This document shows, in pieces, positions 5,322 through 55,837 of a stretch of DNA of 64,000 nucleotides. The position numbers and the translations under genes were made by a program. The DNA is from an uncultured delta proteobacterium (GTDB lineage: Bacteria > Myxococcota_A > Polyangia > Fen-1088): NCBI GenBank assembly GCA_963796685.1, contig CAWCMR010000010.1:96001-160000 (forward strand). The letters are read 5' to 3'. The stretch's first letter is position 1. Each line of letters opens with the position of its first letter. The notes under the pieces are model-generated. The model saw nothing but the letters and a program-made list of their open reading frames with translations, was not told the DNA's origin and made no database searches.

Positions 5322-5346
5322 CTTGATTCCTCCTTGCCAGCGTGTC

Positions 5347-6845: not shown

Positions 6846-7064
6846 ATGAGATGCTGGTTCTGCAACGAGGAGGCCCGCGGCAGTTGCGCCGTCTGCGGGC
6901 GTGGCCTGTGCCGTGGACATGCCAACGTCCATGACGAGCTCACGCTCGTCAAGTCCGATACCTCAACCGGCTATGCGACCTACTTGAACGCCTATGACAC
7001 CTTGAAGTGCAGCGAGTGCCGTTTGGAATGGCGATCGTACGGGCCACATGGGCCGAATCCGTGA
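6846..7064 (+). CDS. Small Cys-rich zinc-finger (B-box-like) protein
   Basis: AAGGGGG RBS; MRCWFC...CAVCGRGLCRGH...KCSEC. Confidence 0.7.
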   Translation: MRCWFCNEEARGSCAVCGRGLCRGHANVHDELTLVKSDTSTGYATYLNAYDTLKCSECRLEWRSYGPHGPNP

Positions 7065-7090
7065 CCACGCTCGCGTGCTCCTCGTGGCTG

Positions 7091-32280: not shown

Positions 32281-32697
32281 TCACCACTCGGGGCTGGGCG
32301 GGTCAGCGTAGTCGACCTCGGCGAGGTCGGACGTGCCCGAAAGCTCCGCCTGTGGCGGGGGGCGCGCAGCGGTGCGGAGCGGGGCTTGGCTGGGGATTCC
32401 GAGGTGGTCCAGAATCTTGCGTATCGCTTCTGGCTTTGTGATCGCGGCCAGGATCTTCATGCGCCCATGGCACTTTGGGCATGTCAGCGCGTCTGTCATG
32501 AACACGCGTTTCAGAAGGAGGGCCCAAGGCAGTCGACTGACTCTTGGTATCTTGGTGATGTCGATGTCGCTGGATTCGCCGGTGCCCGCCTTGTCGGTGG
32601 CTACCGAATCGGCGCCCGCCGCATCTGGCGTGGACGGCGCTGGGGGTGTCGGCACCACCTTGGCGCGGTCCTTCGCCGCAGGACCGAAGATCCCGTG
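32281..32697 (-). pseudogene. IS91-like transposase A, C-terminal fragment
   Basis: HGIFGPAAKDRAKVVP...WALLLKRVF..DALTCPKC.GRMKILA...IRKILDHLG. Confidence 0.85.
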
Positions 32698-33047
32698 TTA
32701 TGCGGAGCGCTCGATTATGCGGAGTTCAACCGTCCCCAAGTCCCGAGGCTCGCGTGTCCTGCGGACTGGACCGTCGCTGACTCCGCATAATATCAAGCCG
32801 ACGTCACCCAGGAGCGGAGGTCAGCGGTGTCTTGCTGGGCATCAGCGATGCGATGAGACGGTCCGGCGGCCGGAAGCGCCCGGGGCGTAGTCGGAGGGGC
32901 ACGATGGACTCGATAGCCTCGATCTTCTCGGTCGGATCGGCCTGCAGGTAGATCTCGGTGGTCGACTGGCTCGTGTGTCCGAGCCAGAGCGACACCTTGC
33001 GGAGATCCCCGGTGGCCCGGAGCGTGTCCAACGCGCATGTGTGCCGC
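32698..33047 (-). mobile_element. RIT-B terminal fragment (terminal repeat plus 3' tail of its third recombinase)
   Basis: Matches 48497-48846; encodes TCALDTLRATGDLRKVSLWLGH..TTEIY. Confidence 0.88.
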
Positions 33048-33166
33048 TTATGCCGTGCTCGGCATAAGCGGCATTATGCCGAGTCCCCGGTTATGCCGAG
33101 TTGCCCGCCATTGCATGCAGGAATCACGGGGACTTCGGGTTCGCTTACGTGCGCGACTCGGCATAA

Positions 33167-34165
33167 TCAAAGGCTCTGTAGGAAGGCGAGGAGCTTGTCG
33201 TCGGGGTGGAAGCGAGCAGGTCGCGCTGCCGAGGGTGCTGTCTTGGCCAGCGCCCGCTCTTTGAGCTGGAGACTGGCAGCGAAGTAGATCTGCGTGGTCT
33301 CGACCGACTCGTGACCAAGCCAGAGCGCGATCACCGAGCTGTCGACACCGGCTTGAAGGAGATCCATTGCCGTCGAGTGGCGCAGCACGTGCGGAGACAC
33401 ATGCTTCTCCCTCAGCGAGGGGCAGCGGATCCGAGCGACCTGCACGTGTTTCGCGAGCAGGTACTCGACGCCGTCGCGACTGAGGAAACCGCCCCGCGCG
33501 TTGGGGAAGAGGGGCTCGGTCCCGGTGGCGGCACGTTCGCGCAGCCACGCCCGGAGGACCGAGACGGCCTCTTTGCGCAGGGGCGTGCAACGTTCCTTGC
33601 GGCCCTTGCCGAGGCAGTGAACGTACGCGCCGGGTCCGAGGACCACGTCCTGCACGTTGAGCGCGGCCAGCTCGGATACGCGCAGCCCGGTCTGAACGGC
33701 CACAAGGAGCATGGCGCGATCGCGCCGGCCGGACCATGTGGCCTTGTCGGGAGCTTCGAGGAGTGCGTCGATCTCGGGCCGGGACAGGAAGTGGACGAGC
33801 TCGCGATCGTATTTCTTGCCCTGCATGGCCAGAACCCTCTGGATGACGGCGCTGTAGTCGGGCGCCTGGAGGGCGGCGTACTGGAAGAAGGAGTGGATCG
33901 CCGCGAGCCTGGCGTTGCGGGTGCGCGGAGAGTTGCCGCGGTCCTTCTCGATGTGATCCAGGAACGCGCCAATCGTTGGTGTGTCGAGGTCGTCCAGTGC
34001 GAGCGCCGAGGGAGTCTTCTTCAGGTGCTGCTTCGTGAAGGCCAGCAGTAGGCGGAAGGTATCGCGATAGCTCTGCACTGTATGTGGACTTGCTTGACGC
34101 TGGCGCAGGAGATGGTCCACGAAGAAGGACTCAAGCAGCGCAGGGAATCCGTGGGAGGGCTTCAC
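33167..34165 (-). CDS. RIT-A third tyrosine recombinase
   Basis: TGLRVSEL, GKGRKER, SPHVLRHS, WLGHES..TTQIY. Confidence 0.93.
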   Translation of the reverse strand: MKPSHGFPALLESFFVDHLLRQRQASPHTVQSYRDTFRLLLAFTKQHLKKTPSALALDDLDTPTIGAFLDHIEKDRGNSPRTRNARLAAIHSFFQYAALQAPDYSAVIQRVLAMQGKKYDRELVHFLSRPEIDALLEAPDKATWSGRRDRAMLLVAVQTGLRVSELAALNVQDVVLGPGAYVHCLGKGRKERCTPLRKEAVSVLRAWLRERAATGTEPLFPNARGGFLSRDGVEYLLAKHVQVARIRCPSLREKHVSPHVLRHSTAMDLLQAGVDSSVIALWLGHESVETTQIYFAASLQLKERALAKTAPSAARPARFHPDDKLLAFLQSL

Positions 34166-35097
34166 GGCGACGTCCTATCTCGCTCCAGGAGCGACATGGC
34201 GAGGCTCATCAACTCGGGCACTGCGGTCAGGTACCAGTAGGTATCACTGACGTGGGTGTGCCCGAGGTAGGTCGACAGCTGCGGCAGGTGCCGCTCCACA
34301 TCGACTCCTGCCCGGTACCAGCGCAGCATGGTGTCCACGGCCCACCGATGCCGAAGGTCATGCAGACGCGGCCCATGACCGTGACGACCTTCAGGACCAC
34401 GAAGCCCAATCCGGCGAGACAGATGGACGAAGGTGTCTTCTGCAGTGTTCTTCACCACCCGGGCACCTGTCTCGCCGACGAAGAAGCTTCTCGTCCGTGG
34501 TGTTGGATGAACGCGATCACGGAAGCGTGCGTACCGGCAAAGTGCCAGTTTCGTCGATCGATGAATGGGCACCAGCCGGGTCTTCCCGAATTTGGTCCGG
34601 CGGATTGTCAGGATCCCGCCTTCGAGGTCAACATCCTCGCGGTCGAGAGCGATCGCCTCGCTGATCCTCAGACCGGCCACGGTGAGCAGGCCAAGCAGCG
34701 TGACGTAGGTCTGAGCACGAAGCCCCGTCTGCGATGGGAGCCGTGCCGCCGCATCCATCAGCCGCATGATCTCGTCCTCGCTGTATATGTAGGGGCGCTT
34801 GCGTTGATACCGAGCCCGGAGGAGCCCGAGGGCAGGGACCTCGGTGCGAGAATCGGTGGCGCGCCAATACTGTGCAAAGAGCCGGACCGCCGATAGCCGG
34901 CTGGCCCAATACACGGGCTGGGTCTTGGTCGGCCGCACGGCCCATTCGACGACCAGATCGTTGGTAATGAACGGAGCCTTCCGCTGCTCCATGAAGGACA
35001 CAAATTGCAGCAGTAACCGCCCCGAGCGGTCGAGCTTGTAGCCCAGACGGCGTCGCAGCGACAGGTACTCCTCGGCGCCCTCGCGGAGCGTATTCAT
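34162..35097 (-). CDS. RIT-A second tyrosine recombinase
   Basis: GLRISEA, TKFGKTRLVP, HDLRH, YLGH..SDTYWY. Confidence 0.93.
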   Translation of the reverse strand: MNTLREGAEEYLSLRRRLGYKLDRSGRLLLQFVSFMEQRKAPFITNDLVVEWAVRPTKTQPVYWASRLSAVRLFAQYWRATDSRTEVPALGLLRARYQRKRPYIYSEDEIMRLMDAAARLPSQTGLRAQTYVTLLGLLTVAGLRISEAIALDREDVDLEGGILTIRRTKFGKTRLVPIHRSTKLALCRYARFRDRVHPTPRTRSFFVGETGARVVKNTAEDTFVHLSRRIGLRGPEGRHGHGPRLHDLRHRWAVDTMLRWYRAGVDVERHLPQLSTYLGHTHVSDTYWYLTAVPELMSLAMSLLERDRTSP

Positions 35098-36325
35098 CGC
35101 CTGCCTCCTGGCCATGCAGGAGCGAGCGCACGTAGCGCATGGAAGTCTACCTTCGCGTAAATCGTCGTCGTATCGGCTCGACGGTGTCGCAGGACCTGCC
35201 CGATCTCGGTAAGGGTCGCTCCTCGGCGCAGCATCGAGCAGGCGAGCGCATGGCGGAGGATGTGCCCGCCTTTGCGTGGTGGGTCCAGTTCGGCGCGTTC
35301 CAGCGCTCGCTTCACGATCGTACAGACCGCGCCCGTGGTTGCGAAGCCACGCCGCGGCGCTCTCGCGCGGACGAAGACTCTCCGGCACGAGCATGCTGGG
35401 CGGCCATGGCGCAAGTACCGGGCGACGGCCTTGCCGACATCGGACGGCAACGGGAGGACGTCTTGCCGCCCACCCTTGCCGTGGACCCGCAACGTGCCTG
35501 CGGCCCAGTCGAAGTCTGCCAGATCCAGGCTCACGACTTCTCCACCGCGGAGGCCGAGTCGTGCCATCAGCATAATGACCGCGTGGTCGCGCAGGCCGGC
35601 TTCGGAGTTTCTTCGTCGACAGCGGCGCAACAGATGCTCGACGTCGCGCGCGGGGATCGATTTCGGCACCGTTGAGAAACGCCAGCAGGCGACCGCGGGA
35701 ACCGTGGCCGCGAGGTCTGCAGCCAGGGCTCTTTTCACGTGCACCCACCGCAGAAAACCGCGTAGGGCGGTAACCATCAGAGCGGCTCTCTTTGGATGGA
35801 CCACGTGAACATGCCGGACCAGAAATTCACCCGCATCCTGGGGCCCGAGCGCATTGAGGTGCACCTCCTGCCGTCGAACCGCTCCAGGAGGAACGAGCGG
35901 ACAATGGGCAGGTAGTTGATCTGAGTCAAGACGGACAAGCCGCGGTCCACCAACAGATACCGGCCGAACTCACTCACGATCCGCCCGATCGCAGTGTCAT
36001 CGACCTTGACGGGCGCTGGCGGCGCAAGACCGGCGGAACGGACCCGTTCAAGGACATCACGCAATGTCGCTGCGTCTCCACGCCGGGGTACGCAGGGATG
36101 GCGCCGGACAAAGCGGGCTACGGCCTGCTCGTCGACCTCCTCGACAGTCAGTCCTCGCCGTCCAAGCCAGTCTCCGAACTTCGCTGCCAGGCGCACCTTG
36201 CACGCCACGGTCGCAGGCGGATATCCCCTCTCAGTGAGCGTTTTTGCAAACGTGTCGAGGTGCGGACCCAAGGGGCCAGCGCGCAGTCGTTGCCATTTCA
36301 GAAAATCGTCGTGCATCCGGGGCAT
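35094..36325 (-). CDS. RIT-A first tyrosine recombinase, 1-bp frameshift near 35865
   Basis: Matches 49014-50246 except GGAGGTG versus GGAGGGTG. Confidence 0.88.
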
Positions 36326-37557
36326 GTGTCCTCCTTCGGCCCGGTGGCCAGAAGGAGACGACGACGCCCTGGTTATGCCGAGTCCGCAAGCCCACCTGCC
36401 GAGGAAATCGCCGTTGATCGCGCCAGATCGAGAGGCTCACTCGGCATAACCGGGGACTCGGCATAATGGCGCAAGACGTGGGCGCCTTTGAATGGAAAGG
36501 TCAGCCGCGCACGCGTGAAGGCCAGTCGGACAGCGGCTGTCACAGCCGAGGAGCTGAGCGGCTGGCCCACCGGCAGCTGGTGCCGGACGAACATGTGACG
36601 ATCGTCGGTGTGCGGCCGGCCGCGGCGTAGGTAGTCAACCAGTGCGCGCCCCACCGGTGCGGGCAGCGGCAGGACACTGGCCCGCCGCTCCTTTCCGCGA
36701 CCGACTCGCAAGGTGCCCGCCCGCCAATCCACGTCATCGAGCAACAGCGCAGCGACTTCGCCGGCCCGCAAGCCAAGCCCAGCCATGCACGAAACCATCG
36801 CGTAGTCCCGCCGTCCAGTCGCCGCGGTCAAGTCGAACGACGCAAGCAAGGCGGCGAGTTGCTCGTCGGACAGACCTCGGGGAAGATTCCCTCGGCGCCA
36901 ATGCGCCACCTTGGGAACAGCGGCTGCCAGTGTCCCTTCGCACAGGCCAGCGACTTGCGCAAATCGAAGGAAGCTACGCAACGCCGTTCGGACAAGCCCC
37001 GCCGCGCCCGGCGAGTACTTTCTGGTCTGCTCCGACACGAAGCCAATCAATTCCTTGGGCCCAAGCCGGCGCAGATCGATCTCGCCAGTCCCGTAGAGGG
37101 AAACCAGAAACCGACGAACGTGCAAGACGTTGCCCTGGCTGGTGGCATCGGTCACTCCGCACGTGTTTTGTCGGTAGGTCCTGAAGGACTCGAGCATACG
37201 GTCCACAGGCGTCTGCACTGGCCGCTGTGGGGGGGTGGCTACGCCCTGTGCGCGCAGCACGGCCAACACGTGGTCCAGTGCCGCCCGCATGTGACAACGC
37301 AACCCGTGTGGCACCCGACACTTGCATCGCGGGAGGTGCCCTTCCAGGAACGACGCTAGGGTAACTTCCCCCACCGCGTTCGGGCTGATCCTTTTGAGAT
37401 CTAACCAATGGGAGAAGTGGCCGGCTGCGCACAGGTACGATTGCCCGACTCTCGGTGTATGACCGCGCTTCTCCAAATGCGCAGCGACATCGTCAAGGAT
37501 CCCGCCCAGCGCTCCGCCGCGAAGGCGAGCCAGCACATAGTCATAGGTGAAAAACTT

Positions 37558-38968
37558 GGCTCTCCTGACATCTTCGTAAAGGGAGATCTCGTAGGTGCGA
37601 CGCACGTCGCCGACGGAGATGTGGGCGGCATGAGTTCCGGGTGAGGTGGAGACGAAGTGCGCACGGGCACCTGGGGTATCGTGTGGCTTGTCTGGAACCC
37701 ACAAGCCCAGGAGCCCATGCGCGCAACCACCCTATTCCGAAACCTACTCCAATTTCCACATACCCGTGTCCTGGCGGTCGAATTCGATCTGCTTGGCATA
37801 TTGGTGCACGTGGCGCCAACGACGACCGTTCCCTACTGTTCAGGCTGCGGATGTCGGGTCCATGACGTGTTCGATGCTCGGGCTCGGAACTGGCGGCATC
37901 TGGACGCGTGCGGGATGGAGGTTCTTCTGCGCTACACCCTGCGCAGGGTTGACTGTCCTCGGTGCGGCGTGGTCATCGAGATGGTCCCTTGGGCCGAGCC
38001 GAAGGTCGGCTTCACGCGTGACTTCGAGGACCATGTGGCCTATCTGGCCCAACAAGCAAGCCAGACGATGGTGGCCGAAACCATGCGCATCGCGTGGCGC
38101 ACCGTCGGCGCCATCATCCAGCGGGTGGTGCCGCGGCACCGAGATCCTAGCCTTCTCCTCGAGGACCTCGAACACATCGGCGTCGACGAGTTGTCGTACC
38201 GGCGGCACCATGAGTACGTCACCGTCGTTGTCGACCACGTCTCGCAGCGGGTCGTCTGGGCACACGAGGGCAAGAACGCTGCGACGCTCGGCTGCTTCTT
38301 CGACGCTCTCGGCCCGGAACGAACCAGCAAGCTCAAGACCGTCACCATCGACATGTCCGCGGCCTACATCGACGCGGTCACCTCGCGAGCGCCACAAGCG
38401 CAGATCGTCTTCGACCGCTTCCACGTTCAGAGACTCGTGCAGGAAGCACTCGACGAGCTCCGGCGTGCGGAGGTCCGACTCCTGGAGGACACCGACGAAC
38501 GCGGGCAACTGAAGAAGACCAAGTACCTTCTGCTCAAGAATCCGTGGAACCTATCCAGGGCCGAGTCTGAGAGGCTTTCGACCCTCCCGAAGACCAATGC
38601 CCGACTCTATCGCGGCTACCTGCTCAAGATCGCCATCTGCGACATCCTCGGTCGTCGCCAGGTCAACGTCGTCAAACAGAAGCTCGAAGAATGGATCAGT
38701 TGGGCCAGGCGATCCAGACTACCTTCCTTCAAGAAGGTCGCCGCGACCATCAAGAAATACCTGGACGGCATCGTGGCCATTGTCGCCACAGGGCTCAATA
38801 ACGGAAGAACCGAGGGCCTTAATGGCAAGATCAGGGTCATCACCCGCAGGGCCTATGGCTTCCACAACGCTCAAGCCCTCATTGGCTTCATCTTCCTCTG
38901 CTGCTCAGGCGTTGTCCTTCATCCCGTCTTCAAGGTGCCCGCGCTTCCATGAAGATGTCAGGAGAGCC
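37558..38968 (+). mobile_element. ISL3-family insertion sequence
   Basis: IR GGCTCTCCTGACATCTTC / GAAGATGTCAGGAGAGCC; flanks AAAAACTT and AAAAACTG (7/8 match, target duplication). Confidence 0.93.
37717..38952 (+). CDS. ISL3 transposase
   Basis: CxxC zinc finger, IGVDE, IDMS, DRFHV, EGLNGKIR..RRAYGF. Confidence 0.95.
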   Translation: MRATTLFRNLLQFPHTRVLAVEFDLLGILVHVAPTTTVPYCSGCGCRVHDVFDARARNWRHLDACGMEVLLRYTLRRVDCPRCGVVIEMVPWAEPKVGFTRDFEDHVAYLAQQASQTMVAETMRIAWRTVGAIIQRVVPRHRDPSLLLEDLEHIGVDELSYRRHHEYVTVVVDHVSQRVVWAHEGKNAATLGCFFDALGPERTSKLKTVTIDMSAAYIDAVTSRAPQAQIVFDRFHVQRLVQEALDELRRAEVRLLEDTDERGQLKKTKYLLLKNPWNLSRAESERLSTLPKTNARLYRGYLLKIAICDILGRRQVNVVKQKLEEWISWARRSRLPSFKKVAATIKKYLDGIVAIVATGLNNGRTEGLNGKIRVITRRAYGFHNAQALIGFIFLCCSGVVLHPVFKVPALP

Positions 38969-39107
38969 AAAAACTGCTCCAGCATGAGTGCTCCTTCCTG
39001 GCCAACAGGCCATCAAGAGCGCCCAAGACTATGCTGACAAACAGAACCCACCAATTCGAGCGACCCACCGGGAAATCCAGCACAGATCGCGTGCGGGTCA
39101 CGAGCAA

Positions 39108-39160
39108 CTCAGCATAATCCGAAACTCAGCATAGGACGGTCTATGCTGAGTTCAGCATAG
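39108..39160. mobile_element. RIT-C terminal repeat, 6-mer and 20-bp palindrome
   Basis: CTCAGCATAA-TCCGAAA-CTCAGCATAG / GACGGT / CTATGCTG-AGTT-CAGCATAG. Confidence 0.8.
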
Positions 39161-39757
39161 TCCATCCATCACGATGACGTGGAAGTGAACATTCAGATTC
39201 AGCGACGACCCGAACCGTTGCACGACGGTGAGGCTTCCGGTCTGCAGTCGGCCTCGAAGCTTGCGCATGCGTGCGCGGCGGCGGAGGTCGGAGTTGATGG
39301 CGCTGATGAATGCACCTAAAACCACGCTCGTGGCGTCGGGTGAATAGGCCATTTTGAAGCGCAAGGCATAGGGTAGCGAGAGCACATATTGCCGAGCAGG
39401 CACCTGGGGAAAAAGGTAATCTACGCAGAAAGCTGCCGTGTCTGCCATGCGGCGGCCAAGACAGCTCGGGCAAAATCCACGCCGCTTACACGCGAACGCC
39501 ACGACTCTGCTGTGCCCACAGTCTTTGCATCGGACGCGAAGAAGGCCGTGCACGAGGATGCCACAACGAAGGTAAGCCTCGATCTCGTCAAGCACGAAGG
39601 CGGGCAGCTCGCCGCCTCCTGATTCCAGATCTGCCAGGAACGTCGCCCAGTGTTCCTGTATCGTTCGATAAAGCAAAGTCGCTTCGAAGCTATGCCGCTC
39701 ATACGAGCCCGCGGGCGCGTGGGTGTGACAGCTTGCTGCTGGTTGCGTGGAAAGCAC
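39161..39757 (-). pseudogene. IS91-like transposase A, N-terminal fragment (Zn-binding domain and HUH motif)
   Basis: YLRCG...CKRRGFCPSC...RQYVLSLP...QRFGSSLNLNVHFHVIVMDG, then cut. Confidence 0.9.
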
Positions 39758-40230
39758 CAGCGGAAGTTCTCGGCAACACGGAGATACTTGTTGCTAGCGG
39801 AACGGGCCGACGACGAGACCTGTCAGGCCGACAGGAAGTGATGGATGCGACCTCGCCTAGGCCATAGGCGATTCGAAGAGGTCCTTTTTGAGCGTCGGAG
39901 AACCCTGCCGGACCGCATCGGCGCTGCCACGAGCACTTCTGCGTAGTGCGCTTGACCGGGTTTCTGGGGCCTGACGGGAGCTTTCTCAAGCACGCAGGGC
40001 AGTCTACTGCATCCCGCCCTTGTCGACGTGCCGTCAGTTCAGCCAGTCTCCGCCCTCGCCACCAGATTGCGAGGGAGGTGGTCGTGCGGGCCAGAGTTTT
40101 GGGGCGTCGGTGGGTAGCCTCATGGCAGACAGGATTTTCTGAGAAGCTGGCTCCAAGAAATGTAGTGCGAAAGTGGCAGTGAAGGCTTGTCCTTTTCCTC
40201 GGGTGTCGCCACGGCGGGGACGGGGACGAC

Positions 40231-40380
40231 TTGGGAGGTGGGATGATCGCGGCCAGTCTGGCAATGAGGGCCAGCGGCGCAAGTTCGATCGACGAGGTGG
40301 CGCCAGACCAAGGCCGCTTGAGCTCCAGCCTCACGAGTTTGTCATCCAGGATCTTCAGCCGGGCGTCGTCGCGACCTCGA
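40231..40380 (-). pseudogene. Additional IS91-like transposase internal relic
   Basis: RLELKRPWSGATSSIELAPLALIARLAAIIPPP. Confidence 0.65.
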
Positions 40381-40483
40381 CCTGTGCAACGCACAAAGAG
40401 GCCCGGAGAATGAAGGCTTCTCCGGATCTCGATCCGAACCCTTCATTTCTCATCCGTCTCTGTGTTCTCTGTGTCCTCTGTGG

Positions 40484-44622: not shown

Positions 44623-44771
44623 GACGGGGTTCTTTATCGGGCAGAGAGGCGCGTCAGTTGCCTCCCTTCTCGGTTATCACATCTGGCCCGCGTTGGGCGA
44701 GCAGCAACTAACGCTGCGCGAGAATGGTGTTTGGGCGATTCGCAGCTCGCCTCGGTTTCTTCAAGCGACCG

Positions 44772-47312: not shown

Positions 47313-47619
47313 TGCCCGCGCACTATACCCATTGGACCATGCCTTAGCGCGAATTTAACCCTTCAGGATTTTCGCATCTTCTCCGACTGCCTCCATGCTC
47401 ACGTGCCCGCCCACCAAACTTTTTGATCAGGACGGAGACTAGGGTGCGATCCAGGTTTGACCGTTCGACGTGCAGGCCATCTTCCCGGTGTCGGCGTTCC
47501 CCGTGTAGAGCCAGGCGGTGACCGTCTGCGAAGCTCCGGCGGCCGTCGACTTGACCCGGCACCGTCCATCGGCGCCCAGGTGCGAGCATGCCGATGAGGC
47601 GGCACCGTCCGTGCCGGTG

Positions 47620-47845
47620 CAGGCGTTGCGCTGCCCCGTCCGATGGCGACGGGGATGAGCAAGCCCGCGCCTGTCTGCGTCGGCGAGAAAGCGAGCGAGA
47701 GAACCGTTGTCCGCAACCAGGTCCTTGCACGCCGGGCACTCGTCAAGATGCCGCTTGGCCTCGGGCGAGGCGGTGTCGCCGCCACCCAGGACCCTTTGCC
47801 TGATCTGCGTGCAGTCCATGTCAGCTATCTCGCGGCATTTTCTCA
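47620..47845 (-). pseudogene. Truncated duplicate of the anti-sigma gene at 62878-63720
   Basis: MDCTQIRQRVLGGGDTASPEAKRHLDECPACKDLV versus MDCAQIRQRVLGGGDAASPEAKRHLDECPACRDLV; internal deletion. Confidence 0.8.
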
Positions 47846-47918
47846 TCGCTGCCTGGTAGGTCTCGTCCGCGGCGCGTTCCGCTAGCAACAAATATCGCCG
47901 TGTTGCCGAGAGGTCCCG

Positions 47919-48470
47919 TTGGTGCTTTCCACGCAACCAGCAGCAAGCTGTCACACCCACGCGCCCGCGGGCGCGTATGAGCGGCATCGCCCCGAAACAA
48001 CTTTGCTTTATCGAACGAGAAAGGTCACGCGCTACGTAGGGCAGCTCACCGGAGAGGACAGGGATCAGCAGCTGACCCTTGAGCATCTGGCCAATTCTTC
48101 CGTGCAAGGGCTGGTCGCGACGGGGCCACGCCGAGGCTGTCGAGTGTTGCGCCTAGGAGGTACCCGCGAACATGCCCAGGCGGCCATCATAGGCAAGAGA
48201 TGTGCAGATGTGGCCGGTTTCAACGTGCACGCCAACGTGCGCGTGGGCGCCAACGACCGCGACGGCCTCGAACATTTGTGCCGATACCTTGCTCGACCAC
48301 CCATCGCGAATGACCGATTGCAAGAGCTGCCCGACGGCCGACTTGCCTTGCGCTTCAAGCAAGTTTGGCGGGATGGCACGACCCAAATCGTATTCACGCC
48401 GCACGAGCTGATAGAGAAGCTGATCCCATTGATTTCCCGCCCTCGCTGCCATCTGGTCCGATAACACGGC
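47919..48470 (+). pseudogene. IS91-like transposase B, N-terminal part with internal deletion
   Basis: Same N-terminus as copy A, then GFNVHA...LEHLCRYLARPP...WRDGT...PRCHLVR-stop-HG; Zn domain and HUH absent. Confidence 0.85.
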
Positions 48471-48602
48471 TTATGCGGTGCTCTGCATAACCCGTGTTAT
48501 GCGGAGCGCTCGATTATGCGGAGTTCAACCGTCCCCAAGTCCCGAGGCTCGCGTGTCCTGCGGACTGGACCGTCGCTGACTCCGCATAATATCAAGCCGA
48601 CG

Positions 48603-48846
48603 TCACCCAGGAGCGGAGGTCAGCGGTGTCTTGCTGGGCATCAGCGATGCGATGAGACGGTCCGGCGGCCGGAAGCGCCCGGGGCGTAGTCGGAGGGGCA
48701 CGATGGACTCGATAGCCTCGATCTTCTCGGTCGGATCGGCCTGCAGGTAGATCTCGGTGGTCGACTGGCTCGTGTGTCCGAGCCAGAGCGACACCTTGCG
48801 GAGATCCCCGGTGGCCCGGAGCGTGTCCAACGCGCATGTGTGACGC
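48603..48846 (-). pseudogene. RIT-B third recombinase, 3' part
   Basis: RHTCALDTLRATGDLRKVSLWLGH continues the SPHTLRH end at 52267. Confidence 0.85.
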
Positions 48847-49013
48847 TTATGCCGAGCACGGCATAAGCGGCATTATGCCGAGTCCCCGGTTATGCCGAGT
48901 GAGCCTCTCGATCTGGCGCGATCAACGGCGATTTCCTCGGCAGGTGGGCTTGCGGACTCGGCATAACCAGGGCGTCGTCGTCTCCTTCTGGCCACCGGGC
49001 CGAAGGAGGACAC

Positions 49014-50246
49014 ATGCCCCGGATGCACGACGATTTTCTGAAATGGCAACGACTGCGCGCTGGCCCCTTGGGTCCGCACCTCGACACGTTTGCAAAAACG
49101 CTCACTGAGAGGGGATATCCGCCTGCGACCGTGGCGTGCAAGGTGCGCCTGGCAGCGAAGTTCGGAGACTGGCTTGGACGGCGAGGACTGACTGTCGAGG
49201 AGGTCGACGAGCAGGCCGTAGCCCGCTTTGTCCGGCGCCATCCCTGCGTACCCCGGCGTGGAGACGCAGCGACATTGCGTGATGTCCTTGAACGGGTCCG
49301 TTCCGCCGGTCTTGCGCCGCCAGCGCCCGTCAAGGTCGATGACACTGCGATCGGGCGGATCGTGAGTGAGTTCGGCCGGTATCTGTTGGTGGACCGCGGC
49401 TTGTCCGTCTTGACTCAGATCAACTACCTGCCCATTGTCCGCTCGTTCCTCCTGGAGCGGTTCGACGGCAGGAGGGTGCACCTCAATGCGCTCGGGCCCC
49501 AGGATGCGGGTGAATTTCTGGTCCGGCATGTTCACGTGGTCCATCCAAAGAGAGCCGCTCTGATGGTTACCGCCCTACGCGGTTTTCTGCGGTGGGTGCA
49601 CGTGAAAAGAGCCCTGGCTGCAGACCTCGCGGCCACGGTTCCCGCGGTCGCCTGCTGGCGTTTCTCAACGGTGCCGAAATCGATCCCCGCGCGCGACGTC
49701 GAGCATCTGTTGCGCCGCTGTCGACGAAGAAACTCCGAAGCCGGCCTGCGCGACCACGCGGTCATTATGCTGATGGCACGACTCGGCCTCCGCGGTGGAG
49801 AAGTCGTGAGCCTGGATCTGGCAGACTTCGACTGGGCCGCAGGCACGTTGCGGGTCCACGGCAAGGGTGGGCGGCAAGACGTCCTCCCGTTGCCGTCCGA
49901 TGTCGGCAAGGCCGTCGCCCGGTACTTGCGCCATGGCCGCCCAGCATGCTCGTGCCGGAGAGTCTTCGTCCGCGCGAGAGCGCCGCGGCGTGGCTTCGCA
50001 ACCACGGGCGCGGTCTGTACGATCGTGAAGCGAGCGCTGGAACGCGCCGAACTGGACCCACCACGCAAAGGCGGGCACATCCTCCGCCATGCGCTCGCCT
50101 GCTCGATGCTGCGCCGAGGAGCGACCCTTACCGAGATCGGGCAGGTCCTGCGACACCGTCGAGCCGATACGACGACGATTTACGCGAAGGTAGACTTCCA
50201 TGCGCTACGTGCGCTCGCTCCTGCATGGCCAGGAGGCAGGCGATGA
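49014..50246 (+). CDS. RIT-A first tyrosine recombinase
   Basis: LGLRGGEV, HGKGG, HILRH, LRHR..TTTIYAK. Confidence 0.93.
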   Translation: MPRMHDDFLKWQRLRAGPLGPHLDTFAKTLTERGYPPATVACKVRLAAKFGDWLGRRGLTVEEVDEQAVARFVRRHPCVPRRGDAATLRDVLERVRSAGLAPPAPVKVDDTAIGRIVSEFGRYLLVDRGLSVLTQINYLPIVRSFLLERFDGRRVHLNALGPQDAGEFLVRHVHVVHPKRAALMVTALRGFLRWVHVKRALAADLAATVPAVACWRFSTVPKSIPARDVEHLLRRCRRRNSEAGLRDHAVIMLMARLGLRGGEVVSLDLADFDWAAGTLRVHGKGGRQDVLPLPSDVGKAVARYLRHGRPACSCRRVFVRARAPRRGFATTGAVCTIVKRALERAELDPPRKGGHILRHALACSMLRRGATLTEIGQVLRHRRADTTTIYAKVDFHALRALAPAWPGGRR

Positions 50247-51178
50247 ATACGCTCCGCGAGGGCGCCGAGGAGTACCTGTCGCTGCGACGCCGTCTGGGCT
50301 ACAAGCTCGACCGCTCGGGGCGGTTACTGCTGCAATTTGTGTCCTTCATGGAGCAGCGGAAGGCTCCGTTCATTACCAACGATCTGGTCGTCGAATGGGC
50401 CGTGCGGCCGACCAAGACCCAGCCCGTGTATTGGGCCAGCCGGCTATCGGCGGTCCGGCTCTTTGCACAGTATTGGCGCGCCACCGATTCTCGCACCGAG
50501 GTCCCTGCCCTCGGGCTCCTCCGGGCTCGGTATCAACGCAAGCGCCCCTACATATACAGCGAGGACGAGATCATGCGGCTGATGGATGCGGCGGCACGGC
50601 TCCCATCGCAGACGGGGCTTCGTGCTCAGACCTACGTCACGCTGCTTGGCCTGCTCACCGTGGCCGGTCTGAGGATCAGCGAGGCGATCGCTCTCGACCG
50701 CGAGGATGTTGACCTCGAAGGCGGGATCCTGACAATCCGCCGGACCAAATTCGGGAAGACCCGGCTGGTGCCCATTCATCGATCGACGAAACTGGCACTT
50801 TGCCGGTACGCACGCTTCCGTGATCGCGTTCATCCAACACCACGGACGAGAAGCTTCTTCGTCGGCGAGACAGGTGCCCGGGTGGTGAAGAACACTGCAG
50901 AAGACACCTTCGTCCATCTGTCTCGCCGGATTGGGCTTCGTGGTCCTGAAGGTCGTCACGGTCATGGGCCGCGTCTGCATGACCTTCGGCATCGGTGGGC
51001 CGTGGACACCATGCTGCGCTGGTACCGGGCAGGAGTCGATGTGGAGCGGCACCTGCCGCAGCTGTCGACCTACCTCGGGCACACCCACGTCAGTGATACC
51101 TACTGGTACCTGACCGCAGTGCCCGAGTTGATGAGCCTCGCCATGTCGCTCCTGGAGCGAGATAGGACGTCGCCGTGA
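50243..51178 (+). CDS. RIT-A second tyrosine recombinase
   Basis: ATGA overlap; HDLRH, YLGH, TYWY. Confidence 0.93.
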   Translation: MNTLREGAEEYLSLRRRLGYKLDRSGRLLLQFVSFMEQRKAPFITNDLVVEWAVRPTKTQPVYWASRLSAVRLFAQYWRATDSRTEVPALGLLRARYQRKRPYIYSEDEIMRLMDAAARLPSQTGLRAQTYVTLLGLLTVAGLRISEAIALDREDVDLEGGILTIRRTKFGKTRLVPIHRSTKLALCRYARFRDRVHPTPRTRSFFVGETGARVVKNTAEDTFVHLSRRIGLRGPEGRHGHGPRLHDLRHRWAVDTMLRWYRAGVDVERHLPQLSTYLGHTHVSDTYWYLTAVPELMSLAMSLLERDRTSP

Positions 51179-52173
51179 AGCCCTCCCACGGATTCCCTGC
51201 GCTGCTTGAGTCCTTCTTCGTGGACCATCTCCTGCGCCAGCGTCAAGCAAGTCCACATACAGTGCAGAGCTATCGCGATACCTTCCGCCTACTGCTGGCC
51301 TTCACGAAGCAGCACCTGAAGAAGACTCCCTCGGCGCTCGCACTGGACGACCTCGACACACCAACGATTGGCGCGTTCCTGGATCACATCGAGAAGGACC
51401 GCGGCAACTCTCCGCGCACCCGCAACGCCAGGCTCGCGGCGATCCACTCCTTCTTCCAGTACGCCGCCCTCCAGGCGCCCGACTACAGCGCCGTCATCCA
51501 GAGGGTTCTGGCCATGCAGGGCAAGAAATACGATCGCGAGCTCGTCCACTTCCTGTCCCGGCCCGAGATCGACGCACTCCTCGAAGCTCCCGACAAGGCC
51601 ACATGGTCCGGCCGGCGCGATCGCGCCATGCTCCTTGTGGCCGTTCAGACCGGGCTGCGCGTATCCGAGCTGGCCGCGCTCAACGTGCAGGACGTGGTCC
51701 TCGGACCCGGCGCGTACGTTCACTGCCTCGGCAAGGGCCGCAAGGAACGTTGCACGCCCCTGCGCAAAGAGGCCGTCTCGGTCCTCCGGGCGTGGCTGCG
51801 CGAACGTGCCGCCACCGGGACCGAGCCCCTCTTCCCCAACGCGCGGGGCGGTTTCCTCAGTCGCGACGGCGTCGAGTACCTGCTCGCGAAACACGTGCAG
51901 GTCGCTCGGATCCGCTGCCCCTCGCTGAGGGCGAAGCATGTGTCTCCGCACGTGCTGCGCCACTCGACGGCAATGGATCTCCTTCAAGCCGGTGTCGACA
52001 GCTCGGTGATCGCGCTCTGGCTTGGTCACGAGTCGGTCGAGACCACGCAGATCTACTTCGCTGCCAGTCTCCAGCTCAAAGAGCGAGCGCTGGCCAAGAC
52101 AGCACCCTCGGCAGCGCGACCTGCTCGCTTCCACCCCGACGACAAGCTCCTCGCCTTCCTACAGAGCCTTTGA
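51175..52173 (+). CDS. RIT-A third tyrosine recombinase
   Basis: GTGA overlap; catalytic R..K..HxLRH..LGH..Y residues present. Confidence 0.93.
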   Translation: MKPSHGFPALLESFFVDHLLRQRQASPHTVQSYRDTFRLLLAFTKQHLKKTPSALALDDLDTPTIGAFLDHIEKDRGNSPRTRNARLAAIHSFFQYAALQAPDYSAVIQRVLAMQGKKYDRELVHFLSRPEIDALLEAPDKATWSGRRDRAMLLVAVQTGLRVSELAALNVQDVVLGPGAYVHCLGKGRKERCTPLRKEAVSVLRAWLRERAATGTEPLFPNARGGFLSRDGVEYLLAKHVQVARIRCPSLRAKHVSPHVLRHSTAMDLLQAGVDSSVIALWLGHESVETTQIYFAASLQLKERALAKTAPSAARPARFHPDDKLLAFLQSL

Positions 52174-52266
52174 TTATGCCGAGTCGCGCACGTAAGCGAA
52201 CCCGAAGTCCCCGTGATTCCTGCATGCAATGGCGGGCAACTCGGCATAACCGGGGACTCGGCATAA

Positions 52267-53033
52267 TGCCGCAGCGTGTGTGGCGAAACACTTCTGCCGG
52301 CCAGCGATGGGCACGCGACCGCTGCGGCGGCAACGTGCTTGCGAAGCACATATTCGAAGCCCGAGCGCGACATAGGGTGAGCGGTGGCCGCGAGGAACAA
52401 CTCGGGACAGGAGGCAGTGCCTCGGATGGCGAGCCAGGCGCGGATAGCGTCGCCTACTTCCTTCCACAGCAGGAGCGCGCGCTCCTTGCGACCCTTGCCG
52501 AGCACGCAAATCTCGACGTAGCGGCCGTCGAAGCGCACGTTGTCGAGGCGCAGCCCGACGAGCTCGGAGACACGCAATCCGCCAGTGAGTGCGAGGTAGA
52601 GCATGGCGCGGTCGCGAATGCCGAGACGCGACGCTGGGTCCGGCGCGTCGAGGACGGCACGCGATTCCGTGGCCGACAGATGTTTCACCAGGCGGGTGTC
52701 GGTGCGCTGCAACGGGATCGCAAGCACGCGCTGGATCTGGTCGAGCGCCGCGGGAACGCGATACTCGATGAAGTGCATGAAGGATCGGACGGCGGCCAGC
52801 CGCGTGTTGCGTGAGCGGGCGCCGTTGCCGCGCTCGCGTTGGATGTGGTCGAGGAATGCCAGCACGAGAGACGCGTCGATGTGCTCGATCTGGATCTCGG
52901 AGGGCGTTACGCCCAGGCGCCTGCTTGCGAACGCGAACAAGAGTTGGAAGGCATATGCATAGGCGACGCGCGTATTTTCACAGGTGATCCGCTCACGAAG
53001 AAACGCGGTGATGTGTGGAGCGATCGGGGTCAT
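52267..53033 (-). pseudogene. RIT-B third recombinase, 5' part, cut at SPHTLRH
   Basis: MTPIAPHITAFL...GLRVSEL...GKGRKER...SPHTLRH, then RIT-A IR. Confidence 0.88.
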
Positions 53034-53941
53034 CGGCGTCCTCCTTCGAAGCGACGCTGGCAGGCGTCGGCAACCTGCGACATGAGCATTGGCGTGGCCT
53101 GAAAGTACCAGTAGGTATCAGCGATACAGCTGTGGCCGAGGTACGTCGAAACCGCGAGCATGTGCCTGGCGATTCGATCGCGCCGATCAGGAGAGCTTTC
53201 GAGAGCGCGCACGGCGAATGTGTGCCGGATGTCGTGCACGCGCGGTTTGCGTCCTCCCGACCGCGCCGGCAGGCCAGCTTTCCGGAGCACCGTGAGCCAT
53301 GCCTTGCGAAAGCCGCCGTAGGAAAGACGCGTGCCTTTGATGCTCACGAACACGTGGTCGTCGCTGCCGGCCACTGCACGTCGGCGGTCCAGATACTGCT
53401 TGATCCCGCTCTGCGCCGAGGGATGGAGCGGGACCAGACGCGTCTTGCCGAACTTGGTCTTGCGGATGACCAGGCCGTCCGATGTCACGTCAGCCATGCG
53501 CAAGGCGAGTGCTTCTGAGATGCGTAGCCCTGTCGCAAAGAGCAGCGCCAGCATCGTGCTCACGGTGAGCGGCCGGAGCGACTTTGCTGGTCCGAGCCGC
53601 GCTGCGACCTCGACGAGCCGGCGCGTTTCGTCCGGGGTGTAGATGTACGGAACCGGCCGATGCCGCTTTCCCGAGAAGTGGCGATCCGGGGGAATCTCGT
53701 GGCGGGGGTCTTCGGCGTGGAGATAGCGGGCGAGTTGAACGACCCGCTGGAAGAGCCGGCACCGCTGGCCAGGTGTGGCCGCGTGCGATGCCCACGCGAG
53801 GGCGGTTTCGGCGCGAACGTGGTCCTCGCCGCGGGCGGCGGCGAACTCGGCGAATCGACGCAGGTGCCGCTCGTATTTTCTGAGCGCGAAACCGCTTGCT
53901 CGCCGCGTGGCCAGCCAGGTATCGATGAGTGTCATCAGCAT
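53030..53941 (-). CDS. RIT-B second tyrosine recombinase
   Basis: TGLRISEAL, TKFGKTRLVP, HDIRH, YLGH..DTYWY. Confidence 0.92.
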   Translation of the reverse strand: MLMTLIDTWLATRRASGFALRKYERHLRRFAEFAAARGEDHVRAETALAWASHAATPGQRCRLFQRVVQLARYLHAEDPRHEIPPDRHFSGKRHRPVPYIYTPDETRRLVEVAARLGPAKSLRPLTVSTMLALLFATGLRISEALALRMADVTSDGLVIRKTKFGKTRLVPLHPSAQSGIKQYLDRRRAVAGSDDHVFVSIKGTRLSYGGFRKAWLTVLRKAGLPARSGGRKPRVHDIRHTFAVRALESSPDRRDRIARHMLAVSTYLGHSCIADTYWYFQATPMLMSQVADACQRRFEGGRR

Positions 53942-55176
53942 GACGCCCCTCCGATCCACGGCTGCGCCACTGAACGCAGAAGCTCCACATCGACCTTGGC
54001 GTAGTGGGAGGTCGTCTCGACAGATCGGTGCCGGAGCACTATTCCGATCGAAGGAAGGGAGATGCCTTCACGTAGCATCGCCGTCGCGGCAGAGTGACGC
54101 AGTAGATGAGCGCCCCGGGTCGGGGTGGATGCGCCCGCACGGGCGATGGCGCGCTTGACGATGCAGGAAACGCAGGAACTTTCCGCCAACGGCCGCCACG
54201 GTGTACGGGATCTCAGAAAAACCCGGTCACATCCGACAACAGCGCGCCGGGCGCGCAAGTAGGCGAGGATCGCATCTCCGACTTCCTGGGGGAGCGGCAG
54301 CCGCACCTCGCGGCGCCCCTTGCCCGCGACCTGCACGCGAGCGTTTGCCCAGTCGATGTCGCTTAGGCGCATCCGGACGATGTCGCCGCCCCGTAGTCCG
54401 AGCCGGGCGAGGAGCAGCAGGATGGCGCGGTCGCGCGCACCGTCCGGTCGACTCGAATCGCACGCGTCGATGATCCGCTGCACGACTTCGGCGGACACGT
54501 ACCTCGGCAGCGAATCCAAACTCCAACTCGCCACTGGCAGGACGGCCGCATCAAGACCAGGTCGGCACCGTCCCTCCAGTGCGAGGTAGCGCAGAAATGC
54601 GCGTGCGACGGTCGTAACTTGCTTCGCCGTTGCGGCGCCATGTCCACCGACTACCTCACGCACCGCCGCTCGAAGCACGCCCGCCCCGTAGCGAGCGGGG
54701 TCGTCACCGAGGTGTTCCAGGAGTGCGATGGCAACGCGCCTGTAGTGGCGCAAGGTCGTATCTGTGGCGCCACGCTGGCGCCGCATCCACTCGCAAAACC
54801 CCGTCACCAGATCCGGTGTTGCTATCGCCTGCTGCCCCGGAACCGCAACGACCCCCACTGTGCGCAAGTACTGCACGAAGACCCACGTGCGCGGACGGGC
54901 GACTGCATGAAAACCGGCGCGGTTTCCGGGGCAACGGCATCGAGACAGGTGCGCCAAGAATGCGCTCAAAGTTTCCTCGTCCAAATCCCCGATTCGCACG
55001 TCCTCAGCAGTGGCCCAAATGCCGAGATGCACGGCGTAGGTGATGCACCATGTGCCAATCCGCTTGCAGTAGCCGATCTCGCGTAGAGCGGTGGCGAAGC
55101 CGTCGAGATACGACCCAACGGGACTCGATCGAGCTCGCGCGAGCCAGTACGCCGATCGCAGAAAGTACTCCAACAT
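53935..55176 (-). CDS. RIT-B first tyrosine recombinase
   Basis: GAGGAGG RBS, MLEYFLRS; LGLRGGDI, AHLLRHS, LRHRSVETTSHYAK. Confidence 0.92.
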   Translation of the reverse strand: MLEYFLRSAYWLARARSSPVGSYLDGFATALREIGYCKRIGTWCITYAVHLGIWATAEDVRIGDLDEETLSAFLAHLSRCRCPGNRAGFHAVARPRTWVFVQYLRTVGVVAVPGQQAIATPDLVTGFCEWMRRQRGATDTTLRHYRRVAIALLEHLGDDPARYGAGVLRAAVREVVGGHGAATAKQVTTVARAFLRYLALEGRCRPGLDAAVLPVASWSLDSLPRYVSAEVVQRIIDACDSSRPDGARDRAILLLLARLGLRGGDIVRMRLSDIDWANARVQVAGKGRREVRLPLPQEVGDAILAYLRARRAVVGCDRVFLRSRTPWRPLAESSCVSCIVKRAIARAGASTPTRGAHLLRHSAATAMLREGISLPSIGIVLRHRSVETTSHYAKVDVELLRSVAQPWIGGASC

Positions 55177-55341
55177 TGTTTCCTCCTCGGTGGACGGGTC
55201 GGGATCATCCCGGCCCTGAGAGGAGGACACCTCCGTTATGCTGAGCCGTCTAGGGCGCGCCACGCGGTCAACTACCCGCCGACACGCAGGGATCGTGACG
55301 GGCACATCGCGGCACTCCGCATAATCGAGCGCTCCGCATAA

Positions 55342-55758
55342 CATGGCATCCTCGGCCCCGCGGCCAAGGATCGCGCCAAGGTGGTGCCGACCCCGCCCAC
55401 GCCACCCGCGCCAGATGCGGCGGGTGCCGAGGCGGCCGGCGCGGACAAGGCGGGCGAGGGTGAATCTCGCGAGATCGACCTCAGCAAGAGACCAAGAGTC
55501 AGCCGACTGCCTTGGGCCATTCTTCTCAAACGCGTGTTCCTGACAGACGCGCTGACATGCCCGAAGTGCCAAGGGCGGATGAAGATCCTGGCCGCGATCA
55601 CAAAGCCAGAAGCAATACGCAAGATTCTAGAACACCTAGGAATCCCCAGCGAAGCCCCACGCCGCACCTCCGCGCGTCCACCGCCGCAATCTGAGCTTTT
55701 GGGCACGTCCGACCTCGCCGAGGTCGACTACGCGGACCCGCCCAGCCCCGAGTGGTGA
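55342..55758 (+). pseudogene. IS91-like transposase B, C-terminal fragment
   Basis: HGILGPAAKDRAKVVP...CPKCQGRMKILA; close paralogue of 32281-32697. Confidence 0.85.
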
Positions 55759-55837
55759 CGACCCTGGGGCTCCAGAAGTGGGGCCGGGATAGGCCATGTC
55801 CATGGCTACACCGCCTCGCAAAATGGGCTTGTTTTCC

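Follow-up and report, generated by a model that had tools for sequence, protein, structure and literature searches.

Why does a mobile element whose ends match one another carry a palindrome beside one of them only, and does that palindrome belong to the element or to the DNA in which it has landed? We address this question in a 64,000-nt stretch (contig C10:96001-160000, hereafter the window) of an assembly of 7.3 Mb in 26 contigs. This region is a nest of mobile elements and comprises three recombinase in trio (RIT) families, here called RIT-A, RIT-B, and RIT-C, with a 20-bp palindrome (hereafter P) outside the RIT terminal repeat. From empty alleles, a survey of relatives, and joined-end contigs, we conclude that P belongs integrally to each RIT element and is inherited with it, and we propose a way in which it probably takes part in integration.

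A Palindrome Inherited with the Element

Every junction of the window follows the same layout, namely a 6-mer, a 20-bp near-palindrome, a second 6-mer, a 10-bp box, 7 bp, and a second 10-bp box, and the four junctions located by a first-pass annotation of this DNA (33042-33100 and 48841-48899 for RIT-A, 48465-48523 for RIT-B, and 39108-39166 for RIT-C) were all verified there. At the element ends, the two direct 10-bp boxes spaced by 7 bp are accompanied by a third, inverted box ~60 bp inside. The RIT-A/B box TTATGCSGAG (at most one mismatch) has 31 matches against 4.5 expected, a count reached in 0 of 100 shuffles, and the RIT-C box YTATGCTGAG has 32 against 3.8 expected. The same annotation had proposed that P is built from the element's own box, which is borne out by the co-variation of P with the window box cores GCCG, GCGG, and GCTG, and that P stands on one side only, which holds wherever both ends are visible (copy 2 of both RIT-A and RIT-B, and additional copies located on C11, C12, and C25). 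Its description of the second 6-mer as an inverted version of the first was right in that target-type words are mirrored throughout, but the inverse is not always exact (6/6, 5/6, 5/6, and 4/6 positions in the window).

Evidence that P belongs to the mobile DNA comes from empty alleles. We aligned the Logan contigs of four public runs to window positions 48200-52800; these runs consist of contigs only, each with at most 0.24 of the sampled words, a kind of data in which rare circle junctions, starts, and strand are not visible. In contigs from three of the four runs, belonging to three studies, position 48840 is joined to 52267 and 3,426 bases are skipped, with a near-perfect match and 162-255 matching letters on the shorter side. 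This empty RIT-B ritC allele holds one 6-mer and no P, so that the target did not contain the palindrome beforehand, and, because 3,426 bases are skipped, the inserted unit amounts to 6 + 20 + 6 + 3,394 bases. The joint of the empty site falls at the 6-mer (with an ambiguity of 2 nt) and the occupied site has two 6-mers that differ by one base, as would be compatible with exchange in the overlap, the cleavage points themselves being invisible in sequence; since the outer 6-mer of RIT-A copy 2 is one base different from that of the empty site, it came with the element. An intact ritC from another genus, 81% identical, reads uninterrupted through H-S-L-R-H-T-C-A, without P. For annotation, the true RIT boundary lies 32 bp beyond one inverted repeat. 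For RIT-B, the empty IS91 site was sought in the public runs, where the sole hint, a loose end of 14 letters in a single run X9 contig, is too short to be trusted, and an unoccupied IS91 target was sought in the genome, where none was found, 3/3 paralogues of the flanking fragment X and 3/3 of Y being occupied. A RIT-B relative in genome G084 is truncated at its left end, with ritA missing and no boxes found, and provides no independent junction.

A motif scan of the assembly revealed further RIT copies on contigs C11, C12, and C25. RIT-A has five copies in the genome (99.91-100% identity) and RIT-B three (99.9-100%), and because the latter are near-identical while the surrounding IS91 sequences are merely 84-86% alike, the RIT-B copies represent separate insertions into the same spot of diverged targets. 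The arms of the RIT-B P are unlike its terminal boxes, yet identical in these three copies, which argues that P is inherited and not rebuilt at each insertion. RIT-A likewise bears the same P in three contexts, namely RIT-B ritC entered in each of the two orientations, and RIT-C ritA. The first-pass annotation had viewed P as a travelling adaptor, and this view is well supported, as P is inherited with the element, co-varies with its boxes, remains constant in the three RIT-A contexts, is absent from the empty allele, and is present in a circular contig described below. That P would instead be foreign to the element, whether as a pre-existing palindromic target, an excision scar, or a sequence re-made by copying the terminal box, might be suggested by its box-like words and by its location outside the inverted repeats, on account of which earlier descriptions left it out of the element. 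We give this idea almost no credence: the target version is refuted by the empty alleles without P, the DNA targeted is conserved and coding, independent insertions share an identical P that is nevertheless unlike the terminal boxes, and its spacing is fixed, with P present in 34 of the 38 parsed relatives considered below. A P made afresh would moreover need arms always equal to the adjacent box, which is not so in RIT-B or in the L062/L065 pair of relatives.

Ten P-type palindromes are found in the genome, nine of which adjoin a terminal repeat at 6 nt. On C12, a P lies 2.1 kb from a RIT-C copy, and its reading as a reciprocal "solo" P, with RIT-C as a P-less element, is refuted by the group II intron that lies between. 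The intervening 2.07 kb matches Rfam families RF02001 and RF00029 and has an open reading frame (ORF) with RVT_1 and GIIM domains, and the RF00029 match stops 5 nt before the RIT-C box. The intron (L097 4454-6529 = C12 26453-28528) is inserted 1 nt past the RIT-C P, within the 6-mer between P and the repeat, and splits the presumed core site of RIT-C. With this exception explained, P accompanies one end of all complete RIT copies in the genome. Stem-loops are homing sites for some bacterial introns, and this one may have homed to that of P.

One Palindrome per Element, with a Fixed Polarity

The alignment of three RitB proteins against a species-representative genome collection yielded 589 relatives, from which 80 loci were kept; 54 of these had enough flank, 43 a credible inverted-repeat pair 3.3-3.5 kb apart, and 38 could be parsed by script at both ends. 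P was called when the 20-mer ending exactly 6 nt before the first box had arms at least 6/8 palindromic and at least 6/8 like the element's own box, a test passed by 29 of 76,000 random 20-mers from the same loci. P is present at exactly one end in 34 of the 38 parsed loci, across many phyla, and at both ends in none. The possibility that most RIT insertions elsewhere lack P is thereby dismissed, and the first-pass proposal that palindrome, 6-mer, and terminal repeat make up a core site is upheld in the sense that, in these 34 relatives, a 10-6-10 arrangement is made up of the right half of P, the 6-mer, and the terminal box that comes first. P lies on the ritA side in 17 loci and on the ritC side in 17, and its arms match the boxes of their own element (mean 7.65/8) better than those of other elements (6.60/8). 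Five unparsed loci were read by eye, with P at one end in L021, L069, and L073, at both in L026, and at none in L006. Three RIT-only contigs of ~3.4 kb (L013, L029, and L082) stop at the last two 6-mer bases on both sides and are uninformative on P.

Most relatives interrupt another tyrosine recombinase gene at the Arg-His codons of its conserved H-x-L-R-H motif. Next to the terminal repeat, the flank reads H-x-x-R then CA in 28 of 34 elements; past P, R-H... is read in 28 of 34; and 27 show both, with a consensus N-C-G-N-C-A common to all three 6-mer positions. The split target genes include RitC (L018, L049, and L058), RitB (L023, L028, and L033), and RitA-like genes (L061 and L068), and split recombinase genes of ~300 aa stand beside an IS91-family transposase gene at four of the eight loci whose neighbours were scanned. 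In the window, the Arg-His codons occupied by RIT-A belong to genes of RIT-B and RIT-C, which themselves lie in IS91-family transposase genes. RITs home, in other words, to single conserved codon pairs in the recombinase or transposase genes of other mobile elements, and are parasites of parasites, which inactivate, then link, copies of their hosts.

This insertion has a polarity: the 5' side of the motif meets the terminal repeat and its 3' side meets P. The exceptions obey it too, as the P-less L006 and L014 have two 5'-type (repeat-type) flanks and L026, with P at both ends (3617-7085), has two 3'-type flanks, both being 3' parts of a RitB gene. These three loci are as expected from homologous exchange between P-left and P-right copies, and such exchanges do occur here, since RIT-A copy 1 of the window is chimeric. 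As a separate observation, the inner P arm and 6-mer of RIT-A (48857-48872; 33058-33073) read Arg-His-Lys-Arg-His in the frame of the split target gene, and the box word itself resembles Leu-Arg-His codons; this may be due to chance, or may hint at how this RIT branch came to home to the motif.

A Proposed Pair of Alternative Core Sites Sharing One Palindrome

In dif/XerCD, loxP, and lambda attP/attB, two inverted arms surround a 6-8 bp overlap, at which strand exchange takes place, and in such classical systems the partner of a poor-armed target site is an element site whose two arms are both good. The same geometry of inverted words 6-8 bp apart is found at all window junctions, in the form of a P arm, exactly 6 nt, and a terminal box. 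We consider it rather likely that the RIT junction is made of two mirror-image 10-6-10 core sites sharing P, either of which can recombine with a target 6-mer. In an intermediate, be it a circle or a formal equivalent, the ends would be joined as ritC end, 6-mer a, P, 6-mer b, and ritA end, and because the ends are inverted repeats, this joined junction would be one long palindrome. Each core site would comprise two 10-bp boxes on either side of a 6-bp overlap, one being a P arm and the other a terminal box, so that P would supply the second good arm that is missing at a single transposon end, much as attP has good core arms and attB poor ones. Integration would consist of a crossover between either 6-bp overlap and a target 6-mer resembling it, placing the terminal repeat against one target side and P against the other, and the core site used would set the orientation in which the element lands. 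Excision would involve the outer 6-mer beside P and the far-end 6-mer, by which the target would be restored and P would leave too, and the 6-mers would be carried over from earlier targets. Compared with classical core sites, a RIT would thus have two back-to-back sites sharing P, entry in either orientation, and three encoded recombinases. Because there would be two alternative core sites, one used per integration, P would be found at either end equally often and always against the same target side, and the model accounts for the one-end P, the 17:17 split, the fixed polarity, the precise empty site, the carried 6-mers, and the circular contig. The idea, put forward in the first-pass annotation, that P serves in two successive exchanges is not retained, as nothing indicates it and the data fit mirror-image core sites that are used alternatively.

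The orientation of P bears on this model. In the frame of the element, the orientation of P does not change between the ritA and ritC ends in 4/4 families for which both arrangements are seen (RIT-A, RIT-B, L016/L017, and L062/L065). Between the window and C11 copies of RIT-B, which make the clearest case, the paralogous target and the target side of P are the same, whereas the element, P, and the two inner 6-mers are turned; these arrangements are those of one circle opened at either 6-mer. An element that stays in place and flips between the core site at P and the far-end site would be a geometrically possible reaction, the inner and far 6-mers being inverted, and both orientations are indeed found at the same target (RIT-A in RIT-B ritC, RIT-B in IS91, and L062/L065). 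Such a flip would however reverse P relative to the element, and flipping of the element alone beside a fixed P is disfavoured because P keeps its orientation in the element frame. Moreover, the two orientations occur at different loci, with diverged flanks (84-86%), and the empty allele and circular contig show real loss and joining, which makes in-place inversion very unlikely.

The two-core-site model predicts a junction of joined ends, and one such junction was found. A junction scan of metagenome contigs (box, 6, arm, 4, arm, 6, box) gave 17 contigs, and the viral contigs scanned with junction patterns gave 0 matches. The whole of contig L106 is 3,527 nt long, with a 99-nt direct terminal overlap that closes it into a circle of 3,428 nt (3,396 + 32), and its three long open frames have tblastn matches to RitA, RitB, and RitC. 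Its junction reads ritC end, 6-mer, P, second 6-mer, and ritA end, so that the contig closes through P, as the first-pass annotation had asked of a circle junction. The interiors of the two ends differ. Both 6-mers belong to the Arg-His type, and they are mutually non-complementary, on which ground L106 is not a fold-back artefact. The existence of the joined form, either circular or as a tandem pair, is thereby shown. Elsewhere among the 17, two different ends are joined in L099 and L103, with no rit gene on one side; four contigs have a one-sided repeat (L098, with two tandem P, and L100, L104, and L105, with a single box-like word); and three end too early. In L098, the tandem P pair (about 1450-1530), with the same 6-mer after each P, stands ahead of one terminal repeat.

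Several points weigh against the two-core-site model. A clear two-end junction with rit genes is found in only one of the 17 contigs (L106), for which a tandem pair or an assembly error is possible, and seven of the 17 show mirror images beyond the repeats, which fit fold-back artefacts or long repeats, or else a hairpin or head-to-head form that the model does not predict. P is at neither end in 4 of the 38 parsed loci (none in L014 and L046, a decayed P in L032 and L035), and contig L078 (3,550 nt), outside the survey count, has P at both ends. The junction that keeps the element's 6-mer varies, with RIT-A copy 2 and the C11 RIT-B on the one hand and the window RIT-B copy 2 and L065 on the other, and because of this inconsistency no order of strand exchange can be read; a fixed rule for which junction retains the 6-mer was accordingly dropped. 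That the boxes are putative recombinase binding sites, that cleavage would flank the 6-mers, that the circle would be double-stranded, and what roles the three recombinases would play, we infer from sequence. In the RIT passages of the mobilome study of Nielsen 2017, RIT coverage is raised after exonuclease treatment and no circle junction is reported (PMC5737581), and Table 1 of a 2023 comparison marks RIT target specificity and movement as "NT" (PMC10214605). Under the two-core-site model, the lack of mapped circle junctions in Nielsen 2017 (PMC5737581) is possibly due to the difficulty of placing reads across an 86-bp palindrome.

The mirror-image contigs may alternatively point to a linear intermediate with hairpin ends, for which telomere-resolvase-like cuts would be made 6 bp apart around the P centre, P being the replicated hairpin tip. 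All seven mirrors are centred on P: metagenome contig L107 (4,218 nt) is a perfect mirror over at least 2 kb on each side of P, with ritA and ritB outward on both sides, and L112 is mirrored 40 nt beyond the repeats despite non-complementary 6-mers. In addition, the P centre is often asymmetric, like a copied loop, and hairpins were proposed by Nielsen 2017 in the description of 47- and 51-bp imperfect palindromic RIT repeats (PMC5737581). However, with one P per element closure would be confined to a single end, 0 of 38 integrated copies have P halved between their two ends, and the target joints are at the 6-mers and not at the P centre. Mirror contigs are also a known assembly or amplification artefact, and most of these stop 25-62 nt past the centre, all of which renders a hairpin-ended form highly improbable.

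In CTX phage attP(+) and integron attC, inverted half-sites fold into a recombination site and leave an inverted structure at one end after integration, both acting as single strands with host or integron recombinases. By analogy, a RIT could move as a folded single strand: the junction hairpin, in which repeat would pair with repeat and 6-mer with 6-mer, with P at the tip, would form one duplex core site, and one strand exchange would be completed by replication, as with CTX phage/XerCD, attC, and strand-biased SE elements. RIT shares inverted half-sites with CTX and attC, single-strand action being theirs and, for the RIT junction, a proposal. P and the 6-mers do fold strongly as single strands, far beyond shuffles (z of -7.3, -6.9, -4.0, and -4.7 at the four window junctions), the one-ended inverted structure is the formal product of folded-strand integration, and the group II intron of C12 lies 1 nt past P. 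Published descriptions in line with this alternative include exonuclease-protected RIT DNA without circle junctions, for which hairpin intermediates were proposed (PMC5737581), and the single-strand circles described for related SE elements (PMC10214605). Yet full complementarity of the 6-mers is seen in just 12 of 34 elements, and in 11 of them 2-4 of the 6 positions differ, such that the overlap of a folded strand would often be unpaired, and the sequence products would be the same as those of a double-stranded circle, L106 showing no more than the existence of the joined form. We regard folded-strand exchange as unlikely, and we assign a similarly low probability to the fuller scenario in which the ~86-bp palindrome folds to one core site and integrates into the catalytic-motif codons of other recombinase genes, with replication finishing the reaction. 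If true, RITs would be the third natural folded-single-strand tyrosine recombinase system, after CTX-type phages and integron cassettes, and protected RIT DNA without detectable circle junctions would be explained as well, along with the mirror-image contigs. The two-core-site model, for its part, predicts recombinase binding at the 10-bp boxes and cuts at the borders of the 6-mers beside P, an excised form with its ends joined via 6-P-6, insertion in both orientations, and a need for P in a minimal construct, and thus provides a consistent and testable account of the RIT mechanism.

Comparison with Known RITs and Related Elements

RIT-A, RIT-B, and RIT-C are further members of a known element class, found in many bacterial phyla. 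The RIT-A trio consists of three tyrosine recombinase genes in the same orientation, neighbours overlapping by 4 bp, and the sizes of its proteins (RitA 410 aa, RitB 311 aa, and RitC 332 aa) follow the RIT-like pattern, in which RitA is extended at its N-terminus. Pfam Phage_integrase matches all three (1.2e-23, 2.5e-18, and 3.4e-33) and, overall, 6/6 Rit proteins submitted, the others being RIT-B RitA and RitB and RIT-C RitC; RIT-A RitA additionally carries Phage_int_SAM_1. The RIT-A unit measures 3,394 bp, with box-7-box repeats of 27 bp, or 33 bp counting the 6-mers, in agreement with the terminal inverted repeats of ~28-34 bp and unit of ~3.5 kb that define RITs, and RIT-A (n = 5) and RIT-B (n = 3) display the multiple near-identical copies per genome also expected of them. 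The 589 RitB relatives are in trios wherever the whole unit is visible. RitA is known with two core-binding domains (PMC8138268), and the 2023 comparison, in its RIT entry, gives recombinase sizes of 315-410 aa (PMC10214605). The description of known RITs by Van Houdt 2012 agrees with the present elements in the ritA-ritB-ritC order (~410/310/330 aa), the 4-bp overlaps, the length of ~3.4 kb, the terminal inverted repeats, the several identical copies per genome, and the nested, truncated arrangements (PMC3414803). A Tn554-type transposon was considered and rejected, as the three genes encode tyrosine recombinases and none is TnpC-like, their order and sizes match RITs, and only the 6-bp carry-over is common.

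The first-pass annotation had warned that parts of this layout may already be described, and correctly so (Lee 2008, PMC2430713; Van Houdt 2012, PMC3414803). In the part of Lee 2008 devoted to mobile cassettes with three integrases in Bifidobacterium longum, the inverted repeat is drawn with a "conserved 20 bp palindrome" next to it (PMC2430713). Like the RITs here, these cassettes have three contiguous integrase genes, a long inverted repeat, and P, and lie between the halves of another insertion sequence; that part describes structure only, without a statement on the mobility of P, a core-site reading, or empty-site or junction evidence, and the box words differ (PMC2430713). In its account of RIT ends, Van Houdt 2012 mentions an "overlapping palindromic sequence" and unexplained variation (PMC3414803), which is resolved here as 6-mer, P, and 6-mer at one end, with three boxes per end. 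Tn554, SE, and GInt elements, as presented in the 2023 comparison, resemble RITs in having several tyrosine recombinases, site specificity, and no ordinary target duplication, and Tn554 and SE elements, on moving, bring a 6-bp word from their former flank to the new site, like the outer 6-mer of RIT-A; their gene sets differ (TnpABC; IntA-Tfp-IntB-Srap), and a palindrome adaptor or mirror core-site pair is not among the features reported for them there (PMC10214605). Full-text literature searches found no mechanistic account of P, and Ricker 2013, which lay outside them, may describe ends or targets. As far as we found, then, RITs are a known class whose mechanism is unpublished, the palindrome itself being already in print, and the window adds natural empty alleles from three studies, a contig closing through the predicted junction, an orientation test, and the behaviour of exceptions.

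Exchanges among Copies and Organization of the Window

RIT-A copy 1 has chimeric flanks, with the 3' part of RIT-B ritC on one side and the 5' part of RIT-C ritA on the other, and its two junctions are found separately on C25 and C12; this copy thus arose by homologous exchange between RIT-A copies and records a rearrangement of the genome. A composite of RIT-B with RIT-A in its ritC is present at two diverged IS91 copies (window 48497-55341 and C11 3536-10381), with the RIT-B P at opposite ends. Either this 6.8-kb composite moved despite its split ritC, with help in trans, or homologous exchange spread RIT-A among RIT-B copies. At C25 680660 (locus L003), a third RIT-A target is formed by the H-D-I-R-H codons of RIT-B ritB, and ~1 kb separating it from the ritC site is gone, which looks like the outcome of recombination between two RIT-A insertions.

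In the window (table 1), RIT-A copy 2 is nested in RIT-B ritC, itself within an IS91-family transposase gene, and the two RIT-A copies are in mutually inverted orientation. The RIT-B copy 1 remnant is 100% identical to 48491-48840 and has no P on its ritC side. The RIT-C ritA 5' part is 99.8% identical to the C12 copy, and paralogues of fragment X (85-86%) on C11 and C25 carry RIT-B at the same spot.

Table 1. Coordinates of the RIT Elements and Associated Features in the Window
Feature	Coordinates	Strand	Details
RIT-B copy 1, 350-bp remnant	32692..32724	+	6-mer 32692-32697; ritC-side boxes 32698-32707 and 32715-32724
RIT-B ritC, 3' portion	32804..33041	-	Begins right after H-T-L-R-H codons; frame 1 translation RHTCALDTLRATG...
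RIT-A copy 1 adaptor	33042..33073		Outer 6-mer 33042-33047; P 33048-33067; inner 6-mer 33068-33073
RIT-A copy 1	33074..36466	-	ritC-side repeat 33074-33100; ritA-side repeat 36440-36466
6-mer, then RIT-C ritA 5' part	36467..37560	-	6-mer 36467-36472; ends in H-V-L-R-H codons at RIT-A end
ISL3-family transposase ORF	37657..38949	+	Insertion sequence (IS) inserted near RIT-C ritA start; Pfam DDE_Tnp_ISL3 5.7e-71
RIT-C ritA-side end	39108..39166		Boxes 39108-39117 and 39125-39134; inner 6-mer 39135-39140; P 39141-39160; outer 6-mer 39161-39166
IS91-family transposase gene, 5' part	39167..39754	-	Target of RIT-C; Pfam Zn_Tnp_IS91 3.1e-16
IS91-family transposase gene, fragment X	47919..48464	+	Target of RIT-B; Pfam Y2_Tnp 4.4e-15
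RIT-B copy 2 adaptor	48465..48496		Outer 6-mer 48465-48470; P 48471-48490; inner 6-mer 48491-48496
RIT-B copy 2	48497..55341	-	Terminal repeats 48497-48523 and 55315-55341
RIT-B copy 2 genes		-	ritA 53938-55176; ritB 53033-53941
RIT-B copy 2 ritC		-	Split by RIT-A: 52273-53033 and about 48603-48840
RIT-A copy 2 adaptor	48841..48872		Outer 6-mer 48841-48846; P 48847-48866; inner 6-mer 48867-48872
RIT-A copy 2	48873..52266	+	ritA 49014-50246; ritB 50243-51178; ritC 51175-52173
Target 6-mer, far junction of RIT-A copy 2	52267..52272		Sole copy remaining in the empty allele
6-mer, then Y'	55342..55806	+	6-mer 55342-55347; Y' continues the IS91-family gene split by RIT-B

The ISL3-family IS sits just past the fifth codon of RIT-C ritA and is absent from the C12 RIT-C copy. 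Inverted 174-bp repeats (89%; 39655-39828 and 47851-48024) are parts of the two IS91-family fragments that bracket an 8-kb stretch, which carries genes of the SNF2-type helicase (40484-42136) and MMPL (44772-47309) families and looks like a segment trapped between mobile-element remnants.

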